A DNA stretch of 38,790 nt, from the IMG/VR virus record IMGVR_UViG_3300042348_001285, one strand, 5' to 3'. Source of the DNA: a virus (lineage: Duplodnaviria > Heunggongvirae > Uroviricota > Caudoviricetes). Numbering within the stretch: position 1 is the first letter of the stretch; each line of letters opens with the position of its first letter. The notes beneath the pieces are model-generated. The model saw only the letters and a program-made list of their open reading frames with translations. It had not been told where the DNA came from and did no database searches. A program made the translations under genes and the position numbers. Positions 20,359 to 34,327 of the stretch are shown here, piece by piece.

Positions 20359-21492
20359 TTAATCCTTAGAATAGTCTTTGACTCCGTCATACAAAATGTC
20401 GATAACTTTGGCAGCGTCATTGTTTGATAGCTTGGCCCATGGGCCTTTCTCGTAGGACGGCAACGGTTGTCTGACTTGGGTTATAATCATCCGGGTAATT
20501 TCGTTGTCGGAGATGCCATGGCTTCTGAGCGCATCGTAAACCCTGGGTAGATTGTCCCTCATTTTTAGTAAATTCTGGGGAGCATCTCCTTTGATTGACC
20601 CTTTATGTACCCCCAATTGGGGGTCAAATTTTGAATTGTAGTCTCCAGAAGTCATAGAATTAATTTTACTAGGGTCGAAAGTTGAACCCTTTGGTAAAAA
20701 ACCTCTGTTGGTAAAAACCCCTAATGCCTCGGATAACGCTGCTTTGACATTTCGTTGTGATAATCCCATGTCAACAAACCTGGACTTACCGTTTTTATCA
20801 ATCAGAACATTACCACTATGTGCATCGTTGTGAGCTATCCCGAGCCTATGGACCTGTGATCTCAAGAACCAGTAAGCATCTCCAATAGAGGTCTTTCCAA
20901 CTCTGTCCGAAGACTTACTGAAATTACCATAATCTTTACCCGGGACCCGGCTCATAACTATGCGTCCATTTGTAATATAAACACCGTGCTCTACTATAGG
21001 TTTGCCTTTGGCTATTTCACCATACACCAGTTTGGGGCCCAAACCGGCTTTACCCAAGATTTGAGTTATTTCAGCTTCCGTTGTACTCACTTGGCCACGC
21101 TTAACAGCATAGCCCGGGTTACCTTTTACCAGGAGCACAGTACCAAATGCACCTTCCCCTAATTTGGTCCCCTTATCTATGGACCCCGACCAGTCAAATT
21201 GATCCTTAGTACCATTAATGACCCTGCCTACCTTGAAACTAGAGTCAAAATCAGAAGCATCTCTAACCCACTGTGTATTACTGGTGACTGCTTTATCCTG
21301 ATTTTTAAGTGGCTTTTGATTTACATTAAATACAGATTTTATGTTAGGCTCAGCATCTGGTCCCACCTTCTTTAAAAAAGTAGACAGACTTTCGGACATC
21401 TCGTCACCTAGCTCTAACTCGCAAATATCAGTTTTTGTTATGCAAGAGTACCTACATGACTTCCCAATTGAGCATCTCTTTTTCCTAAGCAC
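20359..21492 (-). CDS. Protein kinase-fold protein with N-terminal four-Cys leader (GTG start)
   Basis: Gly loop LGEGAFGTV, YAVK, alphaC Glu (EAEI), catalytic loop HNDAHSGN, FVDMG; leader KKRCSIGKSCRYSCITKTDIC. Confidence 0.85.
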   Translation of the reverse strand: MLRKKRCSIGKSCRYSCITKTDICELELGDEMSESLSTFLKKVGPDAEPNIKSVFNVNQKPLKNQDKAVTSNTQWVRDASDFDSSFKVGRVINGTKDQFDWSGSIDKGTKLGEGAFGTVLLVKGNPGYAVKRGQVSTTEAEITQILGKAGLGPKLVYGEIAKGKPIVEHGVYITNGRIVMSRVPGKDYGNFSKSSDRVGKTSIGDAYWFLRSQVHRLGIAHNDAHSGNVLIDKNGKSRFVDMGLSQRNVKAALSEALGVFTNRGFLPKGSTFDPSKINSMTSGDYNSKFDPQLGVHKGSIKGDAPQNLLKMRDNLPRVYDALRSHGISDNEITRMIITQVRQPLPSYEKGPWAKLSNNDAAKVIDILYDGVKDYSKD

Positions 21493-21496
21493 GGAG

Positions 21497-21931
21497 TCAA
21501 CCCCCGTTTAGTAAAGTCTCTAGTCTAGCGATTCGGTTTGATACTGTGTCTATCTTTTCGGAATATGACAATTCTTCACCCGTGGCGATTCGGTGATCAT
21601 CGGTTTTCTTTCTGGCTAGGTCCAAGGTAGCCATCTTGGCATCAATGTCTTCGCGCTTCTTGACTAGTTCCTTAACTTGCTTCATTTGTTCTTGCAAGGA
21701 TTGAAACGCACCCCGCTGACGGGAGATTTTCATTTTCTCATTTAGGGACTCTATTTGGCTGGTTAAATCCGTATGCTTTTTCCCAAGGTCTCCATACTCG
21801 CTATAACTAGGTCGAAGGCCCAGGACTACTGTAGGCTCCATTACAGTACCTTTGGCATAATCTGTGGGCTTATGGGAATAAGCTTGGATCGCCTTATCGT
21901 ATGCTTCTTTTGAGATTTTATCTTTTCTCAT
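21497..21931 (-). CDS. Coiled-coil hypothetical protein
   Basis: 144 aa with heptad-rich helices and two SYSE motifs. Confidence 0.6.
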   Translation of the reverse strand: MRKDKISKEAYDKAIQAYSHKPTDYAKGTVMEPTVVLGLRPSYSEYGDLGKKHTDLTSQIESLNEKMKISRQRGAFQSLQEQMKQVKELVKKREDIDAKMATLDLARKKTDDHRIATGEELSYSEKIDTVSNRIARLETLLNGG

Positions 21932-21955
21932 TTTAAGAGTCCATTATGTTTTCTT

Positions 21956-21961
21956 TTACCC
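21956..21961 (-). promoter_or_regulatory. Representative copy of the recurrent GGGTAA/GGGTATAA upstream motif (candidate late promoter)
   Basis: Found ~20-45 nt upstream of 12 gene starts, always on the coding strand; positions are listed in the findings. Confidence 0.65.
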
Positions 21962-21969
21962 TAACCAAT

Positions 21970-22728
21970 TCAACGTATAGTCGAGTCTAAAGTCTCAGTA
22001 CTGGTTTTGAGGGGGTTCTCTAAATTAATATCTTTTTTATATTTTAAAGATGTGGGGAGATTGTGAATTCCGATTAAGTGCTTATTGACTATTTTGGCAC
22101 TCCCCGTGAAGTCGCACTCAGGGCACACCCATTTTTGGCGATTTGTTTCGGACATTCTTTTAGAATGCTCTTCAGGGGGTATGCCACAAACACCCACTTT
22201 TCTTTCCTTAGTTGTTTGTCCCCCTCTTTTACCCCCCTTTTTACCAGCCTCCCTCTTTTGGTCTTTTGTCATTGAAGCCAACCCCTTACCTTCTCTCCAA
22301 GTACGGCGAGCTATTTCTGCTCTTTCTTCGGGGGTAATTAAACCTAGACCCAAGGGGTAAGATGCCTTACCAGCTTTCCTAGCATACTCAACCCGGTTTT
22401 CGTATAACCATCCCCCCGGGGACATAGCTATAGTGCCATAAATATACCCTAAATTTACTATGTGCCCAGTCTCTTTATTAATATTTCCACTTCTAATTCC
22501 ATTCAACACACAAATTGCTTTTACAATTTCTTCTTTGTTATAATAACCAGCTAAACCTTTCCAGGCTATCTTGTCTTCCATTTTTCCATGTAATCTCCAA
22601 TTTGCATAATGCCACATAGCGTGATTAGCGGTATCCATGTCACATTCTGTGACATTGACTAGGATAACATTCCCCTCAATATACTCCCCGCCCATGTGTC
22701 CAGGCAATATTCTATGCTTATGTTTCAT
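21970..22728 (-). CDS. Free-standing HNH homing endonuclease with C-terminal C2H2-like finger
   Basis: HKHRILPGHMGG...GNV...HAMWH...W...EDKIAWKGL; basic Gly-Lys repeats; CPECD...H...IH. Confidence 0.75.
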   Translation of the reverse strand: MKHKHRILPGHMGGEYIEGNVILVNVTECDMDTANHAMWHYANWRLHGKMEDKIAWKGLAGYYNKEEIVKAICVLNGIRSGNINKETGHIVNLGYIYGTIAMSPGGWLYENRVEYARKAGKASYPLGLGLITPEERAEIARRTWREGKGLASMTKDQKREAGKKGGKRGGQTTKERKVGVCGIPPEEHSKRMSETNRQKWVCPECDFTGSAKIVNKHLIGIHNLPTSLKYKKDINLENPLKTSTETLDSTIR

Positions 22729-22757
22729 TTAGTTTGGGCACAACCTTAATTATACCC

Positions 22758-23117
22758 TTACCACTTAACATCTTCAACCCATTTCCAAACATTGGACCAA
22801 TACGCAGCAGAAGATTTCCCCTTTGCAATATTTTTGGCATGTCTATCCTTAAAGGATTCCCTACGCTTTCGATACGCATCTGATTCTTCTTCTTTTTTAG
22901 GGGACCCCTTTACCCCCTGTTGACCAAAACGAATTAACTTTTCTTTATCATCGTAGCAGGCTTTGACAATGTGGGATTTTGAAGGATGATCGGGGGTTGC
23001 TCGGGGTTTATTACAAGCCATTTTAGACTTGTCATAAGTCTCCCCAAACTGCTCAGCAAACATGTTATAGAATGCCTCTAGGGCTTCATCGCTGAAATTT
23101 GCACTACCGTAAAGCAT
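22758..23117 (-). CDS. Small basic viral protein with acidic N-terminal leader
   Basis: Leader NFSDEALEAF followed by KSHIVKAC...KLIRFGQQG...RRESF..RH...SAAYWS..KW, a domain I recall from cyanophage and giant-virus proteins. Confidence 0.65.
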   Translation of the reverse strand: MLYGSANFSDEALEAFYNMFAEQFGETYDKSKMACNKPRATPDHPSKSHIVKACYDDKEKLIRFGQQGVKGSPKKEEESDAYRKRRESFKDRHAKNIAKGKSSAAYWSNVWKWVEDVKW

Positions 23118-23533
23118 TACTCTTTCTCTCCATGTTTCAAATAGTCTGCAATTGCTGTTAAACTGTGGGAAGCTTCTGAAATTTTTGATGCAATCCAGGG
23201 GTCTGAGTTGCTATTGGGGGTGATCATTCCTAAGGAAGTGACGATATTATCCTGCATTGATTTTAACTGAGTGATTAACATACCACCATTAGGTTCGAAA
23301 TCAGCGTTTCCTTCCCCCATGATAAAAGTCGATGGTTTTGTAGCGGGTTCTTTTTTCATGCCAGGGGCAATAGCCATCTTATCCATTGGGGTAAGATCGG
23401 GCTTTTGACCCCCTGATGCTTCACCAGATCTAGTCGCCCTGGAACCTTTAGCACCCTTGGCAGCATTCTCCACAAAATTCAAATCAAAGCCCAAACCTTG
23501 GAGACGTTTCCAATCGTACTCAGAAATAGTCAT
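23117..23533 (-). CDS. Hypothetical putative head-associated protein
   Basis: Leader YDWKRLQGLGFDLNFVE; C-terminal GM...QL...PW..SKI..A...L..IADYL domain. Confidence 0.6.
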   Translation of the reverse strand: MTISEYDWKRLQGLGFDLNFVENAAKGAKGSRATRSGEASGGQKPDLTPMDKMAIAPGMKKEPATKPSTFIMGEGNADFEPNGGMLITQLKSMQDNIVTSLGMITPNSNSDPWIASKISEASHSLTAIADYLKHGEKE

Positions 23534-23624
23534 TTTATCTCAGGAAGTAATTAATGTTACCCTGTGAGCGACAAGGATGTAATGCCAGGGGGGCTCAATT
23601 AACATAAAAAATACCGTGGGTCAC

Positions 23625-24344
23625 CTAGCGAGGCCACCATTTAAATAATTTCCGGAGCGGTGATGGCTGAATGAACCGTGTCCTCATGATTTCGGAAATT
23701 TCCAGGTACAGGTTTTCTAAGGTATCCTTATTGCTTTTTATTGTTAAATCAAATTTATTCCTTTCTTCAGTACCATACTGAACTGACAAGATTCCAATTG
23801 GCAAATTACCTACCTTAACCATCCTATTATAGAAACAGTCAATCCCATTCCTAGACAGATAGTCCTTACAAGCTTGAGGCAACTCCTCACTAAATTTCAC
23901 AGTCAACCAATCATTTTCTTTAAGCATGGCTTCAATTTCCCTTATGAAACTGCCTATTTGAATATCCTTTACCGGGGATGCCATAGCAGAACTATCTTTA
24001 GCTGTATAGGTATTGGTGGTGGACATTTTTTGGAGGTGGTACCCCGTAAAATCAACCTGCCCATTATGGAAGGAGCACAAAATAACCCTAGAAGCATTAG
24101 TTATGATGCCAATTTGAGCCAAACAAGTGTTGATTTCCTTTTCTTTCTCGATGTGATTTAGAAAGACATCTAGTTTATTTATAGTTCGGGGGGCAATCAC
24201 CTTGGTAACAAGGGCCCAAAGGGCAAACCCAAGGACCAACACGGAATCGCCGGTAAAAGTGAAATTGACTGGGGCTTGGGGAGCAGGTTGCGGAGCAGGT
24301 TGCGGAGCAGGGGCTCCTTGTTTGATATTGGTTAGAGTGGTCAT
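23625..24344 (-). CDS. Single-TM + GAF-like domain protein, possible T4 T-type holin (start revised to ATG 24344)
   Basis: PAPQ repeats, TM segment SVLVLGFALWALV, then ASRVILCSFHNG...PIGILSVQY GAF-like pattern. Confidence 0.5.
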   Translation of the reverse strand: MTTLTNIKQGAPAPQPAPQPAPQAPVNFTFTGDSVLVLGFALWALVTKVIAPRTINKLDVFLNHIEKEKEINTCLAQIGIITNASRVILCSFHNGQVDFTGYHLQKMSTTNTYTAKDSSAMASPVKDIQIGSFIREIEAMLKENDWLTVKFSEELPQACKDYLSRNGIDCFYNRMVKVGNLPIGILSVQYGTEERNKFDLTIKSNKDTLENLYLEISEIMRTRFIQPSPLRKLFKWWPR

Positions 24345-24357
24345 AGAATTTGGTAAA

Positions 24358-24858
24358 TTATTTGGTTTTAGAGTGCTTTTTCCAAAGGTCGTTATCAGCC
24401 TGGCGAGCCTTACCAACTCCTGTAATAAATGAATTCACTCTGGCTAATGCCCATTGCTGCGGGGAAACTCCGGGCCGGTGACCGGAACGCCATGCTGCGA
24501 TCCCTCTACTGTATACTTCTCCTAGGATACTAGCAGAAATTCCGGACTTCTCAGATTTTGCTTTTAGTGCCTTGCTAGACCCCTCTGAATACTTATCATC
24601 GAAGGCTTTAGTTGCGGGGGATTGAGGGATTTTTTCGTTTCTTTTCCTGAACTTATCGTCAGATTCCCAATCTTTGTATAGGTCTTTGGGTGATACTCCA
24701 GGGTCTTTAGCCTTTTGCATCGTTTCTTTAGCTTCTTCCTTGGCGATGGTTTGTTCCTTGGGGGTCAATCCTTTTTTATACCTAGCAGGTAGGGCCCTCT
24801 CTACAAACTGCAAATCAAAGCCAAGACCCTGTAGGCGGTTCCAGTCGTATTCCATCAA
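24358..24858 (-). CDS. DUF5824-like viral protein with N-terminal leader
   Basis: Leader YDWNRLQGLGFDLQFVE; C-terminal KSGIS...VYSRG.AAW.SGHRPG...QQWA.ARVNSF (family name from recall). Confidence 0.65.
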   Translation of the reverse strand: MMEYDWNRLQGLGFDLQFVERALPARYKKGLTPKEQTIAKEEAKETMQKAKDPGVSPKDLYKDWESDDKFRKRNEKIPQSPATKAFDDKYSEGSSKALKAKSEKSGISASILGEVYSRGIAAWRSGHRPGVSPQQWALARVNSFITGVGKARQADNDLWKKHSKTK

Positions 24859-25571
24859 TTGCCATCCGGTAAACCACTACCACCATTTTCAAGCCTTTGC
24901 CTGACAGTTTCCGGTAAACCAGATTCCCATTTGTTTTTGATTGCGATGCGGATGATGGCAGCCATAACCTTACGTGGATCAGCGGTGCGACCTACGGATG
25001 ACCATGCAGCAGCGACATCTTGGGGGCTAGCGATTGGGAAAGACATTCCGGGGCCTGCGAATTCCCCCTTTGTTTTTCCTGCCTTTAGTTTTTCCCTGGA
25101 CTCAGCATCCCATTCTTTGAATTTTGCTGAATTGCTTGGCTTCGCGTTACATGAGTTACATTTACAATTACCCGACTGGCAAGACTTACATCCCCCTTCT
25201 TTGAACGGTTGGGGAATTGACATCAGTTCGGTATCGTCTGCAAAGTTATATTCTTTTCTTTTAAGTTCTTTGAAAGAATCCATTCTAGCTTTGCGGCGAC
25301 CCATGATTTCTTTCATGGCATCTGCCCCATCCGCGTGGCTATCATAGTCCCTATTGACTAGGCTGGCCCTCCGTTCTCTGATGGCCTTATTGCCCTTTAG
25401 AATAGCCTCCTTGTGCATCGACAAGCCACCTTCAGGAGTGGGGGACCATTTACGGCCGATTTTATTCCTTTTCATCAACTGATCAGTAGAAATGGCATTA
25501 CTGGCATTTAACTGTCCCCCGACACCCGGCAAGAGTACAGAGGAGAAATCCATGTGTTCTCCGTAAGGCAT
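24855..25571 (-). CDS. Hypothetical putative head-associated protein with Cys cluster
   Basis: CKSCQSGNCKCNSC, then FAGPGMSFPIAS.QDV.AAW...GR (DUF6582-like, from recall). Confidence 0.6.
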   Translation of the reverse strand: MPYGEHMDFSSVLLPGVGGQLNASNAISTDQLMKRNKIGRKWSPTPEGGLSMHKEAILKGNKAIRERRASLVNRDYDSHADGADAMKEIMGRRKARMDSFKELKRKEYNFADDTELMSIPQPFKEGGCKSCQSGNCKCNSCNAKPSNSAKFKEWDAESREKLKAGKTKGEFAGPGMSFPIASPQDVAAAWSSVGRTADPRKVMAAIIRIAIKNKWESGLPETVRQRLENGGSGLPDGN

Positions 25572-25596
25572 AAGAGTAGTTAGAAACTTATTTCTT

Positions 25597-25917
25597 TTAC
25601 CCTTTGTCTTCGGTGTTTGTATCTGAGTTGTTATCTAAACTATTGTCCTTATTGTTTGACTTACCGGAACTCCCCTTGGCAGCCATCCCCAAAGCAGCAG
25701 CGGGTACTAGCAACGCTAAGAAGACATTGGCTGCGGATTTGGCAGTTTCGGAGAAACTATCGGATATTTTTAAGCAAAAAGCTGAGTAGGAATCATTTGG
25801 TGATTTCCTTAGGTTATTGCGACACGATATGTTTTCATACCCTATCATGGCAATTTGTGCTACAAAAATAGCCACCAAAGCTTTAACTAAAAATGCCCTC
25901 TCGTTGAATTCTTTCAT
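25597..25917 (-). CDS. Two-TM membrane protein
   Basis: Hydrophobic segments AFLVKALVAIFVAQIAMIG and VFLALLVPAAALGMAA flank a loop with two Cys. Confidence 0.6.
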   Translation of the reverse strand: MKEFNERAFLVKALVAIFVAQIAMIGYENISCRNNLRKSPNDSYSAFCLKISDSFSETAKSAANVFLALLVPAAALGMAAKGSSGKSNNKDNSLDNNSDTNTEDKG

Positions 25918-25967
25918 TGCCCTACAGCGAATCTACTTAGATTTACCCTTTGCTGACTGGTTAATTC

Positions 25968-26147
25968 TTAAAGGTAACGCATCCCCTCAATTACTTCGGG
26001 CGATACTTTACCTGAATTCTTTAATTCTTGGGCTGCCTTAAGGAGAGTTTGGGCCTTTTCTAAATCAGCAGGGTCTCTGCGGGCGACTTTATAAGCCCCC
26101 ATTAATTTTTGGTATTTTTTATCGGATTCAGACATTTTGCTTGCCAT
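25968..26147 (-). CDS. 59-aa helical protein coupled to the kinase (candidate immunity/partner; below the ORF-track cutoff)
   Basis: MASKMSESDKKYQKLMGAYKVARRDPADLEKAQTLLKAAQELKNSGKVSPEVIEGMRYL*; its ATG overlaps the kinase stop (TGATG). Confidence 0.7.
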   Translation of the reverse strand: MASKMSESDKKYQKLMGAYKVARRDPADLEKAQTLLKAAQELKNSGKVSPEVIEGMRYL

Positions 26148-27346
26148 CAGACCCCATCATATAGAAGGTCAATGTATTTCTTAGCCTGTTTGTCAGTGAT
26201 TTTTGACCAGGATGAGTTGGTATTGAAATACTCATCTTTTTGCCTAATGTTGGTATTTTGAAATTCTCTAACGTCAGAATCTGACAAACCATCAGCTTTC
26301 ATGGCTTCTACTACTGTTCTGATATTTGAACTAATTAAATTGAATATTTTTCCTTTTCCCTGGGAATACAACTGTCTCTCAGCTTGAAAGTCTGCCCCCG
26401 TCCTACCAGCACCACCTAAAGCCTCTGCAAGAGCTGCTTTACGGGAAACCTGGGCTAGCCCTAAGTCAACGAATCTTGCCACACCCTTATTGTCAATCAT
26501 GATATTACCGGCGTGAGTATCATTATGGGCTACACCCAACCTGTGAATTTTAGCCCTAGCTGTCCAGTAAGCGTCCCTTGTTGTTATACCGTTGACAACA
26601 TCGGGTGACTTATAAAGTGGAGTTCCTTGCACTACCCCCATCGCGATTCTGCCTGTGGCCACCCTATATCTCCCACCCCCGAATTCCCCGTGCTGGGCCG
26701 CAATAAATTTAGGCCCTATGCCTGCTTTGCCGACAATCTTGAGGGCTTCTGCTTCATGGAGACCTATTTCCCCAGCCTTAATACCTACATTCCTACCTAA
26801 CGCACCGTTCGGAACTTTGAAGAACGCCCCAAACATGCCAGCACCCATTTGAACTGCATTAGGGTTACCTACGGCGTTCCAATCAATGGATTTAGCTGCT
26901 TTACTACCGTCAACGTCCCTAAGTTTGAAACCAGGGGCGTCTATTACGTCGTAGACTTCTTTGGCTTTTGCGGGGAGGTTAACTGCGGGGGCCTTAGCCG
27001 TGGGTTTTGCTACTTGGACTTCGGCTGCGGGCTTTGCCATGGGGGCCTTAGCCGCCGGAACCTTCGCTACCGGTTTTGCTACTTGGACTTCTGCTGCGAG
27101 GGCCTTCACTACCGGTAACTTACGTTGGGCCAATATCTGATTAGCAACCTTAGTAATCACGGGGTTTAAAGCCCAAGGAATATCAACCATGCAAACATGG
27201 TAACCCGGGATGCAAGAAGCTCCGCAAGATTTACCCATCTTGCACTTTTTTTTCTTTAATTTGGGCAAATCAGGGCCACCTAGCCTAGCTATTTGGCCCC
27301 TCTTAGCGGCATTAATTTGAGCTTCTGTTCTTCCTAGGACTGCCAT
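26147..27346 (-). CDS. Protein kinase-fold protein with four-Cys leader and Ala/Lys/Pro linker
   Basis: MGAGMFG, VGIK, EAEA, HNDTHAGN, FVDLG; leader KKKCKMGKSCGASCIPGYHVC; repeated AAEVQVAKP linker. Confidence 0.85.
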   Translation of the reverse strand: MAVLGRTEAQINAAKRGQIARLGGPDLPKLKKKKCKMGKSCGASCIPGYHVCMVDIPWALNPVITKVANQILAQRKLPVVKALAAEVQVAKPVAKVPAAKAPMAKPAAEVQVAKPTAKAPAVNLPAKAKEVYDVIDAPGFKLRDVDGSKAAKSIDWNAVGNPNAVQMGAGMFGAFFKVPNGALGRNVGIKAGEIGLHEAEALKIVGKAGIGPKFIAAQHGEFGGGRYRVATGRIAMGVVQGTPLYKSPDVVNGITTRDAYWTARAKIHRLGVAHNDTHAGNIMIDNKGVARFVDLGLAQVSRKAALAEALGGAGRTGADFQAERQLYSQGKGKIFNLISSNIRTVVEAMKADGLSDSDVREFQNTNIRQKDEYFNTNSSWSKITDKQAKKYIDLLYDGV

Positions 27347-27382
27347 TGAAATTGGGGTATTTATGCTTTAAATTTACCCAAT

Positions 27383-27997
27383 TTATTCCTTGTCGTTGTA
27401 TTCCCCATCTTCATCATCATCATCGTCCTCATCTTCATCGCCACCTTCGCTAAGGATCTCATCGATTAGGGTATCAATTTCATCCTCATTTAGTTCTTCT
27501 TCCTCGACTTCGGACTCCTCATAAGGGTCTTCTTCGTATTGAGTTTCGTTGTCGTTGCTGTTGTCGTTGTCGTCAGAGTCACTTTCTGCGTCATCGTCAG
27601 AATCGCTCTCATCCGAACCCCAAATCTCTTCAGAAAGGCGTTTAAATTCTTCATCGGTTAGGAATGTTGAGTTTTCATCTGAATCTTTAATATCTTCGGC
27701 ATCTTCGGCATCTTCGGCATCGTCATCAACTTCACCGACACCATCGTCTGGGTCAGCGGGGAAATAATCGTCTGGATTAAATGGCTGGTTGGGTTTAAAG
27801 TCACGGGACATACCATCATTGGCTTTCCAGAGCCCGGTATGCTGAATCCAGGGGGATGTATTATGGACTACGTTAGTTGGCAACCCATTAATGGGGTCAA
27901 TTTCGTGATCTTCAGGGTTTGACAATTGAGCTGCATAAGCTGCGCGGAAAGCTTCAATAGCATCCTGTTCAAAATCGCCGTTGATTCTATTCGTCAT
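27383..27997 (-). CDS. Highly acidic D/E-rich protein
   Basis: C-terminal half dominated by D/E; a 9-bp repeat x3 at 27692-27718 encodes (DAE)3; leader GDFEQDAIEAF. Confidence 0.7.
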   Translation of the reverse strand: MTNRINGDFEQDAIEAFRAAYAAQLSNPEDHEIDPINGLPTNVVHNTSPWIQHTGLWKANDGMSRDFKPNQPFNPDDYFPADPDDGVGEVDDDAEDAEDAEDIKDSDENSTFLTDEEFKRLSEEIWGSDESDSDDDAESDSDDNDNSNDNETQYEEDPYEESEVEEEELNEDEIDTLIDEILSEGGDEDEDDDDDEDGEYNDKE

Positions 27998-28167
27998 TTG
28001 TTTAAGGGGTCGGTATTGGAAAGTTTAAGTGTTGGGGGGGGTGTTTGGGGTGTTGGGCCCTGGTCCATTCAGCTTTCAGTTTTTAGGCCTGTTTCAGCAA
28101 ATGTTGAAAGTGTGCCCCGGGACCTACTTAGACCAATGATTATTACCCATTGTGCTGGCGGTAGGGG

Positions 28168-28509
28168 TCACCACTTTTCAATTTTACCAGAAATATCTTG
28201 CAATAGTTTGCTATTGCCTTGAAGTTCCTCTTCATATTGTCTTATGGTGGCCTTGACTTCGGCCTTCAATTTACCCTCTTTAATGAGACGTTCCTTTCTC
28301 TCATCGTCAGTTTCTTCCTTTTCAGCGTGATTTCCGTCGGCACCGTCAGCATCATCAATAACCACGGGGTGAATCTCATGAGTTAACCTATCAAGGAGTT
28401 TATCCATAGAGTCTTTCAAGCCTTTCCTACATACGGAATCGGCAGAAATTTCCATGGGGCCGCAAGGAATCCTGTATAAGTCTCTAATTTTAGCCTCAGT
28501 TTTGTCCAT
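28168..28509 (-). CDS. Hypothetical protein
   Basis: 113 aa ORF tightly packed in the operon. Confidence 0.6.
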   Translation of the reverse strand: MDKTEAKIRDLYRIPCGPMEISADSVCRKGLKDSMDKLLDRLTHEIHPVVIDDADGADGNHAEKEETDDERKERLIKEGKLKAEVKATIRQYEEELQGNSKLLQDISGKIEKW

Positions 28510-28510
28510 G

Positions 28511-28846
28511 TCAAGCCCCTTCTCTAGGTTTTAAAATCCATTCATTTTCGTAATCCGTGTAATGGATACCTTTTCTTTTTTCTAATCTTCTGGCAGGGTC
28601 TTTCTTGTTGGCTTCCCTCATACCGTTTACCATGGTGTCCCGCATGGCCCTAAGTTTTTCCTTTGGCACTTCACAATGCGGGCTGTCCCTATAGCTTCTG
28701 TACCATTTACAAACTTCTGAGGGATCATCAGATTGTAACATCATGTTCCAGATTCCCATTTCTTGGCTACCGGTTAGCGTACCCACTGGTAATTTACCTT
28801 CTAGGTCTTCACGGGAGGGCCTATTAAATCTTGTGTCTCTTCTCAT
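28511..28846 (-). CDS. Hypothetical protein
   Basis: 111 aa ORF; its start overlaps the upstream stop. Confidence 0.6.
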   Translation of the reverse strand: MRRDTRFNRPSREDLEGKLPVGTLTGSQEMGIWNMMLQSDDPSEVCKWYRSYRDSPHCEVPKEKLRAMRDTMVNGMREANKKDPARRLEKRKGIHYTDYENEWILKPREGA

Positions 28847-29025
28847 TGGGTAGCTACCAATAGGGCTTCCATTAGTTCATTTTTGATAAACTCAGATGAC
28901 TCCATATCCCCTCTTTTTCTCTCTAAATCAGACAAGGCAGACAAGGCTTTTGCATATTTATCGAAGTTTTCTTTATCGGAAGGTGCCTTACGAATTAAGA
29001 CCTGGGCTTTTTCGATGCTATCCAT
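28843..29025 (-). CDS. 60-aa helical protein downstream of the metallopeptidase (candidate immunity/partner)
   Basis: Starts 3 nt after the peptidase stop; MDSIEKAQVLIRKA... Confidence 0.6.
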   Translation of the reverse strand: MDSIEKAQVLIRKAPSDKENFDKYAKALSALSDLERKRGDMESSEFIKNELMEALLVATQ

Positions 29026-29028
29026 AGT

Positions 29029-29911
29029 TTATCTCAGTAAGTTCCCTTCCCTTAGAACAGACTCCACCAGTTCATATTCTGCTGGAAAAAGTTTTTTCAT
29101 TTTGGGTCCAGCGAATATGTAACTTGAAAATAGCTCAGCATAGTGCTCTAGTTGATTTGTTTTACTGTATGTGCTAACTCTTTTGAAGCTATCGGGAATT
29201 CCAACTTCTTTCGCTTTGAAGTGAGCGTGGTGCCCTAGTTCGTGAACTAATGTCACCAGTGTATTATTGCTGGCTGACCCTGGAGCTTTACCCATAGTGT
29301 GTGGCAGTTCTTTACCTTGGGCGGCACTGGATAAATGCTTTTCGGCAGTGGCCTTGATTTTCTTTACTTGTGGGGTAAACCCCTGAGCTGACCGAATAAC
29401 TGTGACCCCCTCTTTATACGCTAACCCGCCCCAAGTCTTATTGTAGATTTTCTGCGAGATGGTGAAATCTGGGTTTTTGAAGTACCCTGAAAATGCGCTT
29501 CTGAAGGCTTCTTTGTTGCCTGCAATGTCCTTCCAGTCCATGAATAGGGTCTTAGTCTTATTGAAAATCCTCTGGAGAACTTCTACTCTGCGAGGGGCGT
29601 CTGGGTCCAGGTTTTTTAAATCCCGGATGGCGCCCATGATGGAGTTCCTGTTAAAGTCTATCTTTAGGTCAGGGTGAGCTTTTACTTCGCCACTTCTCAT
29701 TAGCTTGATGAATTTCCCAAGGGAATCTGCAATATATGGGCTTAATTCAACTCTGCAAACTAAACCCCGTTGAATGCAAGTTGAGCGACAAGATTTCCCT
29801 AAAGAACATCTTTTCTTCCCGGACCCCCCCCCATCTCTGGGGTGCGCCTAGGTGCTGAATAGTTCCAGCAATTGCAAAATCAAATTCTTTAGGGTTATCT
29901 ATTTCGATCAT
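29029..29911 (-). CDS. Zincin metallopeptidase (anthrax-lethal-factor-like pattern) with four-Cys leader, frameshifted at a G9 tract
   Basis: HELGHHAH plus VSTYSKTNQLEHYAELF. The same frame upstream of 29700 reads SGKKRCSLGKSCRSTCIQRGLVC with no start codon; ATG 29911 joins this frame if the G run (29824-29832) is G8. Confidence 0.75.
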
Positions 29912-31116: not shown

Positions 31117-32523
31117 TCAGGTGACGATGGGTAGTAGTTGACTGTAGCTAACTAAGATTGCACATAGGGTGTCGGATAATGAAATCTGGAAGTTATCACA
31201 GCCATCCAACGCACTGAGAGTATCTGAACTAGAGAATTTTACTTTTCCTGAGCTTAACATTTGAGTGAAGGCATTTAATTTGGTTTGTTGCAACTTGCTA
31301 CCTACGCAAACGTTTAACCCTAAATCCTGTAGGTATACGGCCCAAGCCGCACTTCCCGAAGCGGACTCAAGTACAATTTCTTCCGCTCCGTATGCCTTAA
31401 CTGCTAGGCTTAGGATTACTCCGACAGTTTTCAAGTCCCAATTGCCTTCGTAAGTGTCAAGGACATACATGTGGTCTCTTTCTTTTGTAACCCCCGCGAT
31501 GCAAATACCTGTTTTATCAATGCTGTAGGCACTGAAAGCAGGATCAACAGAAATGATAACTCCATCTAATGGGGGGATTTCTGGTGTCGGTGAGCACCCT
31601 TTATACAGCCAAGAGAACTTTTCATCGCCGATATTCCTTCTAATATGGTTCAGATTTTCGGGGGACCAGTAGGAATTGATTCTACTCAAGGTTTCCCCTA
31701 CATTCCTACCAAGAATGTCAGCCTCTGCCTCTTCTTTACTTCCGATAATTGCTGACAGATTAATGTGGACGGCTCCTTTCGGGTTTGATACGGGGTCAAA
31801 AACACCGAATTTATCTAAGAAGTAGCCGAAAATGTCTTCATCACCCCATCTTGACCCAAGAACAACAATGGCACTGTTTTGGTGGCGCCGGGTCATAATT
31901 TCCTCTTCCATCCAGTCTTTATTTACTGTTATATTTGAGGACTTGTGATATTCATCGATCAACCAAACTCCAGGCACTTCAGAGTAGGGATTGCAGTTCC
32001 CGTAACCAGACCCCCATACAGGGCCCCCAGGAGCAGACGGCACGACATGGTGAGGATCCAGGTCAATTTTAGAAAAAATTTCCTCAAAAAGTGGATTATT
32101 AACCTCTTGCTTCACCCTATTTGCCGCCACCTTTGCAAGACTTTGGTTGTAAGAAGTTACGAAATGGTTAGTATCAGGGTCTTTACCCAGGAGCCATGAC
32201 AGAAAGAGAGAGCCCAATGTTGACTTCCCTGTGCGAGGGGGCATTGATACTAAGAGAATCGGATATCTACCTTCGGCAATGTCTTCAAAGTGAGACCCCA
32301 AGACTTCATAAGTTTCCCAATTTAGCAAGGAGTCTGTGCCTTCCGTGGCGCGAGACAAATAGTAAGGAAAACTATTTTTGGCGAATTCTTTAATGGACCG
32401 CAAAACTTCTTCCTCGGTGGCCCCATTCATTTCAAGTTCAAGAAGTCCCCTCTTATACGCTCTCCAGCTTGAATGTTCCGATAGCTGGGAAGCGTGTGTT
32501 ATTTTTGGGTGTTTTGGTGTCAT
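31117..32523 (-). CDS. Terminase large-subunit paralogue (shorter, degenerate nuclease C-terminus)
   Basis: Walker A MPPRTGKS, Walker B WLIDEY, coupling motif GSRW, nuclease ISVDPAF...VLES; lacks the HDD..DA motif. Confidence 0.8.
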   Translation of the reverse strand: MTPKHPKITHASQLSEHSSWRAYKRGLLELEMNGATEEEVLRSIKEFAKNSFPYYLSRATEGTDSLLNWETYEVLGSHFEDIAEGRYPILLVSMPPRTGKSTLGSLFLSWLLGKDPDTNHFVTSYNQSLAKVAANRVKQEVNNPLFEEIFSKIDLDPHHVVPSAPGGPVWGSGYGNCNPYSEVPGVWLIDEYHKSSNITVNKDWMEEEIMTRRHQNSAIVVLGSRWGDEDIFGYFLDKFGVFDPVSNPKGAVHINLSAIIGSKEEAEADILGRNVGETLSRINSYWSPENLNHIRRNIGDEKFSWLYKGCSPTPEIPPLDGVIISVDPAFSAYSIDKTGICIAGVTKERDHMYVLDTYEGNWDLKTVGVILSLAVKAYGAEEIVLESASGSAAWAVYLQDLGLNVCVGSKLQQTKLNAFTQMLSSGKVKFSSSDTLSALDGCDNFQISLSDTLCAILVSYSQLLPIVT

Positions 32524-32596: not shown

Positions 32597-34327
32597 TCAG
32601 AGCGATAACCCATAACCAGTGTCATCCCTATTGAGGCGGGGTCTGGAAAAAGACTCTGGACCGATAAAACCAGAACCAGAATCTAAATTATTGTAAAGTC
32701 CAGCCGAAGGTAAATTCCTCCCTACTCTACCAGTAGGTAAATTCGAATCACCTAAGAATGGCCTTCTGTTTCCTCCGCTCCACCTCCTCGCTTGTATTAT
32801 AGCGTCTTGTACCCCACGGTCAACGGTGTCTAGCTTCATCGCATAGTACGTCAGGGACCACACAAACGCATCCACCGAGTCATCGTGCTTAACGAAGGGG
32901 AATCCTGTTAGCTCCTTAATAAAACTATCTACCCATAACCCCTCAACGAGTTTAACCCTGTCATTCTCTAAAAGTGGGCAAACAGCTTCGAGTCTAACCG
33001 TTTTTGACCTAAGGGGTCTCATTTCTTCTACAGGTATTTTTGTTTCCCGTCTCAACATTTGTATCAAGGACTGGCCGGATGCTGCCTTTTCGATACAGAT
33101 TACTTTTGGTTTGTAGAAGGAATGTAGTTGCTTAATAGATGCAATCAAATCAGGGAAACCCCATCTCCCTTTAACGATTTCCCTAATGTAAACAGTTCGG
33201 GGGTCCCTAGTTGAAATGCCAGCCACACAGACCGCAGTTTCGTCTGCACCTTCTTTTTCAGAAAACGCACAGTCTACACCTAGCCATACTACATCTAGTG
33301 GTGGGCATTTTTCTTCTTCTACCCTAACTATCCACCCAGCCTTTACAATTTGACCTTCTGCTGCAGTTGGAGTTCCTTGATAAAGGGCCGCAAATTTGGA
33401 ACTGCCCATAGTTTTCTTTTGGGCCTCCAGCATATCAATCGAGAATGCCGGGTTATCAGGCCAATGGGACTCACCGATTTGCCTACCTAAGGGGTCATCG
33501 ACGGGGTCTTCACACAGGCCCGCAATATTCACCCATCTCCAACCTTCTGGGTTTTCTTCCTCATCATAGCTACCGTCCGATTCTAAAACCTGGCCATGCA
33601 AATCATTGGCATGAAACCTGGTCGCAATAATTAGACGGCAATAATTGTTAGTTTTACGTGTCGATGCCTCTTCTTGCCACCACGTTTGGAGGCTCTCAAA
33701 AGCCCTGGCAGAAGCTGAGCTTTTCAGTGGGTCGTCGATTACCATGGCCCCCACACCTGGGCTAATAATGTTTACAGACCCTGCCGTATGGCCAGTCAAC
33801 ACACCACCGACAGAAGTAGGCAGGATGTATCCGCCACTAAGCATCTCAAATTTAGAGTCCCTAGCAAAACCTTTCCAATCAGGGAAGATTTTCTTAAAGA
33901 CAGGTGTCTTCAACATGCCGATAACTTCCTTATGGAACTTATTGGACAGTGATAAGCCATAAGAGGCAATAACGTGTTGAGTTTCTTGATCTCTCCCTAG
34001 TAACCAAGCCACAAACATTGATGCCAGCATTGATTTACCGGACCGGGGGGGACAGGATACGATCAAGTTATGGTAGCGTTTATTTGCTAGATCCTCAAAA
34101 CCACTGGCAATAATTTCATGGAAATCCGCGACCTTTAACGCACCACCCTTCATCAAGTCTGCAAAAGCCAGGAAACAATACCTAGAAGACTCAAACATGT
34201 AGTTCTGAATGACAGAGTTTGGTGCTTCTAAGACATTAAGATGATGTAAACCCCTAATGTAATGGCGCCATGAGCTGTGTTCATCTAGTTGACTAGCGTG
34301 GTTTATTATCGGTCGTGGGAGTGTCAT
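32597..34327 (-). CDS. terL: Terminase large subunit
   Basis: CPPRSGKS, MVIDDP, ATRFH..DL, LYQG.P, LGVDCAF, IEKAASG, FP..KHDDSVDA. Confidence 0.93.
   Translation of the reverse strand: MTLPRPIINHASQLDEHSSWRHYIRGLHHLNVLEAPNSVIQNYMFESSRYCFLAFADLMKGGALKVADFHEIIASGFEDLANKRYHNLIVSCPPRSGKSMLASMFVAWLLGRDQETQHVIASYGLSLSNKFHKEVIGMLKTPVFKKIFPDWKGFARDSKFEMLSGGYILPTSVGGVLTGHTAGSVNIISPGVGAMVIDDPLKSSASARAFESLQTWWQEEASTRKTNNYCRLIIATRFHANDLHGQVLESDGSYDEEENPEGWRWVNIAGLCEDPVDDPLGRQIGESHWPDNPAFSIDMLEAQKKTMGSSKFAALYQGTPTAAEGQIVKAGWIVRVEEEKCPPLDVVWLGVDCAFSEKEGADETAVCVAGISTRDPRTVYIREIVKGRWGFPDLIASIKQLHSFYKPKVICIEKAASGQSLIQMLRRETKIPVEEMRPLRSKTVRLEAVCPLLENDRVKLVEGLWVDSFIKELTGFPFVKHDDSVDAFVWSLTYYAMKLDTVDRGVQDAIIQARRWSGGNRRPFLGDSNLPTGRVGRNLPSAGLYNNLDSGSGFIGPESFSRPRLNRDDTGYGLSL

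Follow-up and report, generated by a model that had tools for sequence, protein, structure and literature searches.

In this study, we describe a conserved four-cysteine leader found at the head of three genes in a 38,790-nucleotide stretch of tailed-phage DNA (Caudoviricetes; IMG/VR record IMGVR_UViG_3300042348_001285), hereafter the window. It is close to certain that this leader, which is conserved and uncatalogued, heads a polymorphic family of phage effectors. The motif KK[RK]C-x2-GKSC-x3-CI-x5-C occurs in exactly three window genes, all on the minus strand, where it stands ahead of two protein-kinase-like domains (leader-kinases A and B) and a domain with an HExxH motif. As to its role, we put the probability at about 0.5 that the leader is a module for loading effector enzymes into the virion and delivering them to the host cell.

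A constant leader with swappable C-termini

An exact DNA-pattern scan of IMG/VR recovered 98 stretches, against a chance expectation of about 2-4 estimated from the information content of the pattern, and these encode 78 distinct leader proteins, whose C-termini BLASTP sorts into at least 19 clusters. A profile of 50 leaders, run against 1.84 billion (1.84e9) representative proteins, matched 780 protein clusters at E<=1e-3, of which 174 reached E<=1e-10; among the best 150 matches, the first motif lies no more than 60 residues from the N-terminus in 133, and 13 proteins carry several copies of the leader. The attached domains overall comprise Pkinase, ABC1, APH, ADPrib_exo_Tox, ART, HNH, HExxH, Zeta_toxin, PGDYG, alpha/beta-hydrolase or lipase, LRAT (NlpC/P60), GNAT and DnaJ, with one Zeta-toxin domain and one PGDYG domain among the IMG/VR leader loci. 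In a Pfam scan of 117 representatives, kinase-like families were matched in about one quarter, ADP-ribosyltransferase exoenzyme in six and HNH in one, and the majority matched no Pfam family. Giant relatives repeat a unit of leader, hydrophobic helix and lipase-like hydrolase, others contain LRAT (NlpC/P60), DnaJ or GNAT, and at least two effector domains are present in one polypeptide in the relatives P0002, P0011, P0021 and P0122.

Exchange of the C-termini is also visible at close range. In close relatives, leaders nearly identical to that of kinase B (its first ~62 amino acids, aa) head a 443-aa non-kinase and proteins of 91-150 aa, recombination having joined near-identical leaders to different C-termini. 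One 14.5-kb stretch (L230) holds eight consecutive leader genes whose leaders are ~53% identical and whose bodies are unrelated, with no small genes interleaved on the leader-gene strand and one 99-aa gene on the opposite strand. The sequence-only reading of the window had proposed a constant N-terminal module with swappable enzymes, to be abandoned if the leader sat only on these few domain types; the wide C-terminal diversity clearly disposes of that restriction, and the HMM search of metagenomes and tabulation of attached domains that it had suggested gave the 780 clusters and many unrelated domains, which are typical of toxins or host modifiers. Its impression that this is not a described system also holds: no model covering the leader family was found in Pfam, PHROGs or NCBIfam, no match to the leader was found in PDB (see below), and leader proteins are named in databases as 'hypothetical protein' or by their kinase part only.

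Within the window, all three peptides quoted earlier for a shared N-terminal module were found on the minus strand, and two kinds of search agree on them. A degenerate DNA pattern for C-x2-GKSC-x3-C has exactly three window sites, at 21442-21474, 27212-27244 and 29776-29808, and gave 0.00 matches in shuffled window sequence. A leader hidden Markov model (HMM) built from 116 sequences and run on the six-frame translation identified the same three open reading frames (ORFs), with E values of 3e-23, 2.6e-16 and 1.2e-13, and no further significant match and no fourth leader ORF were seen in that translation.

Leader-kinase A (20359..21492, minus strand) is a 377-aa protein with a GTG start, in which the leader (aa 1-42) is followed by a disordered linker (aa 43-73) and a protein-kinase-like domain (aa 74-377). 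Its four-Cys core (aa 7-24), located by the DNA pattern and the HMM as in the other two genes, lies at 21421..21474, and its catalytic motifs are GEGAFG (21142-21159), HNDAHSGN (20809-20832) and VDMG (20764-20775), all on the minus strand. Leader-kinase B (26147..27346, minus strand; 399 aa) has the full leader of ~75 aa, with pre-helix, basic patch, Cys core (aa 35-52; 27191..27244, minus strand) and post-helix in that order, followed by a Lys/Pro/Ala-rich linker and a kinase domain with the motifs HNDTHAGN (26504-26527) and VDLG (26459-26470), also on the minus strand. Residues G114, K131, E139, H221, D223, N228 and D241 of the kinase are invariant in 53 homologues, the AlphaFold model of kinase A (pLDDT, the per-residue model confidence, 80.6) has a confident kinase fold with a low-confidence leader, and a Foldseek search with this model returned protein kinases at a probability of 1.0. 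Pfam matches of kinase A to Pkinase, ABC1 and APH were below cut-off (Pkinase 27.7 bits against a cut-off of 31.7). Sequence and model thus support the earlier assignment of both proteins as protein-kinase-like, with a Gly-rich loop, catalytic Lys and Glu, HxD-x4-N, DxG and a kinase fold. Downstream, kinase A is directly followed by a tail-fibre gene. Helical-looking ORFs of 59 and 60 aa, without a family, stand directly downstream of kinase B (25968-26147) and of the HExxH gene (28843-29025), both on the minus strand.

The third gene had been read as an HExxH peptidase starting at 29911 with its leader hidden upstream of the annotated frame; the leader and the HExxH motif are indeed present, but the ATG at 29911 is out of frame with them. 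The leader-HExxH frame (29029..29847, minus strand) runs for 272 codons from stop to stop without an in-frame start, no ATG, GTG or TTG being found ahead of the motif, and contains the four-Cys core (29755..29808, minus strand) and HELGH (29230-29244, minus strand), which, together with a downstream Glu (E-x2-AE), is conserved in the family. The protein found no match in Pfam or PHROG scans, and only three homologues, all close, came up when the HExxH domain was used in a word-indexed search. The ATG at 29911, which overlaps the phoH stop, opens another frame ending at 29747, a 54-codon ORF (29747..29911, minus strand). Between the two frames lies a G9 homopolymer (29824..29832, minus strand), which breaks register with both possible starts, as the ATG at 29911 needs G8 and an internal ATG at 29833-29831 needs G7 or G10. 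Relatives with near-identical flanks and G8 have one 293-aa ORF from the ATG corresponding to 29911, in which the 54-codon segment forms the N-terminal pre-leader; those with G7 encode a 267-aa protein that starts M-GGSGKKRC at the ATG just ahead of the run. Because these near-identical G7 and G8 relatives encode intact proteins, the HExxH gene is real, although out of frame with both starts as assembled in the window. The G9 run may stem from misassembly or be a true length polymorphism.

Architecture of the leader and its cysteine core outside phages

The leader spans ~45-75 aa, ahead of a disordered linker and an exchangeable enzyme domain, and consists, in order, of an optional basic helix RT-x2-QI-x2-AK[RK], a Gly hinge, a KRKR patch, the four-Cys knuckle and LV[DE]LP[W] with an amphipathic helix. 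The knuckle has the consensus C-x2-GK[SP]C-x3-CI-x5-C and the invariant form C-x2-GK-x-C-x3-CI-x5-C, with all four Cys invariant in 116 leader sequences. An AlphaFold model of kinase A from an alignment of 53 sequences left the leader unfolded, with residues 1-29 and 43-73 below pLDDT 50 and residues 30-42 forming a helix, and the deeper alignment of 116 sequences was needed to model the leader of kinase B (pLDDT 74), which shows a helix at 8-22, a hairpin at 39-46 within the Cys core (pLDDT 82-87) and another helix at 58-75. After the Cys core, the helix and linker of variable sequence that had been predicted are thus seen as helix 30-42 and disorder at 43-73 in kinase A, and as helix 58-75 in kinase B. 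Since the leader residues of kinase A have low pLDDT while its kinase domain is confident, the leader is modelled as a flexible tether which does not dock on the kinase and lies outside the enzyme fold.

The leader model found no match in PDB by Foldseek (best E 1.8) or by VIA-align across ~48,000 chains (best Z 2.7), and the leader profile gave a chance match only against PDB sequences (E 0.45); such a lack of structural match does not show a new fold. From its sequence and model, it is plausible that the knuckle binds Zn in the cytoplasm. A T4-type L-x-E cleavage site after the fourth Cys was considered and rejected, D being commoner than E at that position.

The Cys core itself is not confined to phages. 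An exact-pattern scan of 185,579 prokaryotic genomes gave at least 120 loci, and most among the matches listed are not phage effectors. One group among these matches comprises small secreted proteins ending in a nine-Cys domain, CC-x2-C-x2-GK[AP]CG-x2-CI-x5-C-x5-C-x-C, with the fuller consensus CC-x2-C-x2-GK[AP]CG-[DN]-[ST]-CI-x5-C-[HR]-x3-GCAC-[DN]-G (loci L108-L227, for example L117:6122-6310 and L148:2392-2580). This nine-Cys family is widespread and uncatalogued in Pfam and NCBIfam, is found among the matches listed mainly in Alphaproteobacteria, Gammaproteobacteria, Gemmatimonadota and Chloroflexota, and includes a protein (P0017) with nine or ten tandem copies of the domain. A second group among the matches comprises secreted proteins with SNase or SH3b domains, whose signal peptide leads straight into the four-Cys core, such as staphylococcal-nuclease homologues (L227:5129-6196, L195:1717-2436 and L144:1763-3409) and proteins of Ca. 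Thiodiazotropha that combine the core with an SH3b_T domain. In such secreted proteins disulfides are as likely as Zn. What is specific to phages is that the core stands together with the basic patch and the two helices that flank it, and that this combination heads cytoplasmic enzymes at their N-terminus.

Virion association and genomic position in relatives

Under the delivery reading, the leader would traffic effector enzymes into the virion, in the head or the tail lumen; the packaged enzymes would enter the cell with the DNA, and would act on host proteins or the envelope before phage genes are expressed. Candidate binding partners of the knuckle are the portal, the scaffold and DNA. Such a route would be analogous to those of T4 Alt and the T4 internal proteins, MuF fusions and polyvalent proteins. 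Indirect experimental support for it comes from Aphanizomenon phage vB_AphaS-CL131, in which the leader HMM matches ORF048 (E 5.7e-20), ORF047 (E 3e-5) and ORF044 (E 2e-3). ORF048 is an 1811-aa protein composed of leader and lipase-like modules, in which K-C-K-V-GK[QP]CGD-x-CIPK-x4-C recurs in four significant copies and one further, degenerate copy, and the top match of the window-derived profile (P0002) is 31% identical to it (E 2e-71). CL131 ORF044-048 are among 23 proteins detected with LC-MS/MS (tandem mass spectrometry after liquid chromatography) in CsCl-purified virions, ORF048 with 54.6% coverage and 175 peptide-spectrum matches (PMC6293099, SI Table 5); the main text of that paper does not discuss ORF044-048 or the motif. 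The portal of CL131 (ORF012, L235:3800-7981), which is abundant in the same virion proteome, has 1393 aa, about twice the usual length, and the HMM finds no Cys leader in it.

A fusion to a virion protein was also found. P0015 (L107:102-3284) is a single 1060-aa ORF which begins with a Mu-type portal (aa 4-296) and continues with two leader-headed modules; by sequence motifs its last module is GNAT-like, and the Pfam scan listed the portal domain only. The leader HMM further gives weak matches to six head-block proteins of PaV-LD with a variant knuckle. These proteins (ORF061R, 065R, 078R, 080R, 081R and 085R; L233/L234) carry C-x6-7-CG-x2-CI-x5-C preceded by [FY]-R-x-DA, and for two of the six the record's annotation reads minor head protein or virion structural protein. 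The virion loading that had been suggested from the window is thus supported indirectly and in relatives, by leader-bearing CL131 proteins in a virion proteome and by the portal-leader fusion.

The position of the leader genes is also shared with a cultured phage. The minus strand holds every long ORF, from ~38.8 kb down to 5.4 kb of the window, and in the direction of transcription a head-tail adaptor is followed by two TerL (terminase large-subunit) paralogues, PhoH, small and medium genes (29.9 to 20.4 kb) and three giant tail-fibre or baseplate-like proteins. The TerL paralogues are adjacent (31117-32523 and 32597-34327, minus strand), the 576-aa copy being a strong TerL match in PHROGs and the 468-aa copy being 29% identical to the TerL of Synechococcus phage S-CBWM1, the top terminase hit in a set of 50,697 phage records. 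Judged from these comparisons, the window phage is a distant relative of S-CBWM1, and both share the order adaptor, TerL, PhoH, leader gene (gp091 in S-CBWM1), leader kinase (gp084) and giant baseplate or fibre protein. In all, S-CBWM1 carries four leader genes; the other two, gp035 and gp036, have annotations as putative Ser/Thr kinases and adjoin psbA and sHSP genes. Five leader genes are present in the nearest record, a 130-kb IMG/VR contig. A tblastn search with one leader against the same phage records returned S-CBWM1 only, and CL131 and PaV-LD were recovered later by local HMM search. In a census of genes neighbouring the IMG/VR leader genes, most of the signal (TerL, PhoH, tail fibre) came from contigs closely related to the window, and the census adds no independent evidence.

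The small and medium genes of the window contain another repeated N-terminal module, EYDW-x-RLQGLGFDL-x-FVE, which differs from the Cys leader and is common to the genes at 23117-23533 and 24358-24858 (minus strand); their bodies are unrelated, and one of them matches DUF5824 (E 6e-20). Leader reuse in the gene block therefore extends beyond the Cys leader.

Competing explanations, known systems and significance

While the CL131 proteome, the portal fusion, an effector repertoire shared with Alt, MuF and polyvalent proteins, and the conserved place beside packaging and baseplate genes all favour loading and delivery, several observations weigh against it. The CL131 and PaV-LD proteins form a diverged subfamily, the link to them rests on a motif of ~30-45 aa, CL131 is a siphovirus, and the leader fold is of moderate confidence (pLDDT 74). 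Some leader genes lie among psbA, sHSP and RNR genes outside structural blocks (S-CBWM1 gp035 and gp036, and contig L228), which weakens the earlier argument drawn from a location between terminase and tail genes. In the giants the leader is repeated ahead of each enzyme module, where one packaging tag per polypeptide would suffice, and across the family it spans myovirus, siphovirus and Mu-like phages, which speaks against a specific fit to one capsid interior. Because the Cys core is also found in secreted bacterial proteins, it is a generic small module, at work outside the cytoplasm too, rather than a packaging signal as such.

Some of these points also favour the main competing explanation, which we regard as rather unlikely, that the leader is an intracellular targeting or regulatory Zn knuckle, and that the enzymes are made during infection and sent to DNA or the nucleoid, to the membrane or thylakoid or to a host protein, or are controlled in their activity, without being packaged. 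The strongly basic patch before and within the knuckle suits binding to an anionic surface or to nucleic acid, the core is joined in bacterial relatives to SNase nucleases and to SH3b domains, and the repeated leaders of the giants are often followed by hydrophobic helices; leader genes beside psbA, sHSP and RNR, and a leader spread over unrelated virion types, also fit. On the other hand, the leader proteins of CL131 are physically in virions, a portal fusion exists, and the window and S-CBWM1 share a conserved position of the leader genes, downstream of TerL and PhoH but ahead of the baseplate genes. Nor does such targeting exclude packaging, as a DNA-binding knuckle could itself cause co-packaging. 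A broader form of the delivery reading is more tentative: the four-Cys leader may be a general and hitherto unrecognised cargo-loading system of tailed phages, parallel to MuF and the T4 targeting sequence, in which a basic Zn knuckle would tether any enzyme to the portal or to DNA during packaging, dozens of interchangeable effectors (kinases, ARTs, lipases and peptidases) would enter with the genome, cargo would be reshuffled by recombination at the leader, and the G-run of the HExxH gene would switch one cargo on or off, or between long and short forms.

It is improbable that the leader is a processing boundary, recognised in polyproteins and pre-proteins by a phage protease (the prohead protease or the leader-bearing HExxH peptidase itself) whose cuts would release active modules. 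The leader does stand at every module boundary in the giant proteins, conserved LV[DE]LP, and R-x-DA in the CL131 and PaV-LD type, lie beside the knuckle, and zincin peptidases have been proposed to process polyvalent proteins (Iyer et al., PMC5512222). However, cutting would be superfluous in most members, which have just one enzyme, the candidate P1 site is occupied by either D or E, and processing would not conflict with loading and delivery.

That the family is a classical polymorphic toxin-immunity system is equally improbable, because small ORFs are missing from between the leader genes of tandem arrays. Toxin-type domains are present (Zeta toxin, ART, HNH and HExxH peptidase), kinase B and the HExxH gene each have an ORF of 59-60 aa immediately after them, and ~89% of MuF toxin genes have a small downstream ORF (PMC5576092); against this, the eight-gene array lacks such ORFs on its strand, kinase A is directly followed by the tail-fibre gene, no MuF domain was found, no integrase or lysogeny genes were seen among the part of the window ORFs that was scanned, and the commonest cargo is a kinase, not a nuclease.

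By analogy, loading and delivery by the leader would make this a system of phage effectors with a constant trafficking module and swappable enzymes, which would work like the targeting-sequence proteins of T4 and the MuF fusions and is a member of neither. In T4, a short conserved N-terminal targeting leader is carried by unrelated proteins, the internal proteins IPI-III and Alt, including an ADP-ribosyltransferase, which are packed into the head and injected with the DNA, and are encoded at hypervariable loci. The T4 leader has ~10 aa, contains no cysteines and is removed by the prohead protease. The family described here likewise has a conserved N-terminal leader on otherwise unrelated proteins; it differs in showing no sequence similarity to that of T4 and in having a leader of 45-75 aa with a four-Cys knuckle.

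MuF toxins also join a constant N-terminal module to variable C-terminal toxins (nuclease, ART and, in 20%, metallopeptidase), and are virion-associated (Jamet et al. 2017, PMC5576092). The MuF toxin architecture that had been invoked for the window is an analogy only: Phage_Mu_F was absent when Pfam was scanned with the window's three proteins, with 10 diverse leader proteins and with the 117 representatives. The likeness lies in a phage-borne constant N-terminal module with variable C-termini, and the leader modules of P0015 follow a Mu-type portal, the usual place of MuF. Unlike MuF, the leader is one tenth the size, its cargo is dominated by kinases, its genes form tandem arrays without interleaved small ORFs, and the known leader phages are lytic cyanophages whereas MuF phages are temperate. 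As to the small downstream ORF typical of MuF toxins, two of the three window genes are followed by one, and on the leader-gene strand of L230 none stands between the eight genes.

Polyvalent proteins, for which entry into the cell along with the invading DNA has been predicted (Iyer et al. 2017, PMC5512222), share the same effector repertoire (ART, kinase, GNAT, zincin peptidase and hydrolases), and P0002, P0122 and CL131 ORF048 resemble them as multi-enzyme giants that adjoin virion genes. The window proteins differ, as each has one enzyme domain where a polyvalent protein has at least two effector domains. The Cys leader is not among the domains in Iyer et al. 2017, and the word 'cysteine' is absent from the main text (PMC5512222). 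CL131 ORF044-048 are virion-borne and have the knuckle K-C-x2-GK[QP]CG-x2-CI-x5-C at the N-terminus or ahead of each lipase-like module; they differ from the window proteins in belonging to a subfamily with R-x-DA before the knuckle and a hydrophobic helix after it, and in their siphovirus virion.

If the leader does load cargo into virions, the widespread ways in which phages are known to bring ready-made enzymes into cells, MuF fusions and the T4 targeting sequence, would be joined by a third. It would then also provide a sequence handle, at present 780 clusters, for finding early effectors and anti-defence proteins of phages in metagenomes, most of the attached domains having no known family, as well as a compact tag to load foreign proteins into phage particles. 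As S-CBWM1 is cultured, the delivery idea is directly testable, and kinases and ADP-ribosyltransferases delivered by phages would bear on the takeover of photosynthetic hosts by cyanophages.

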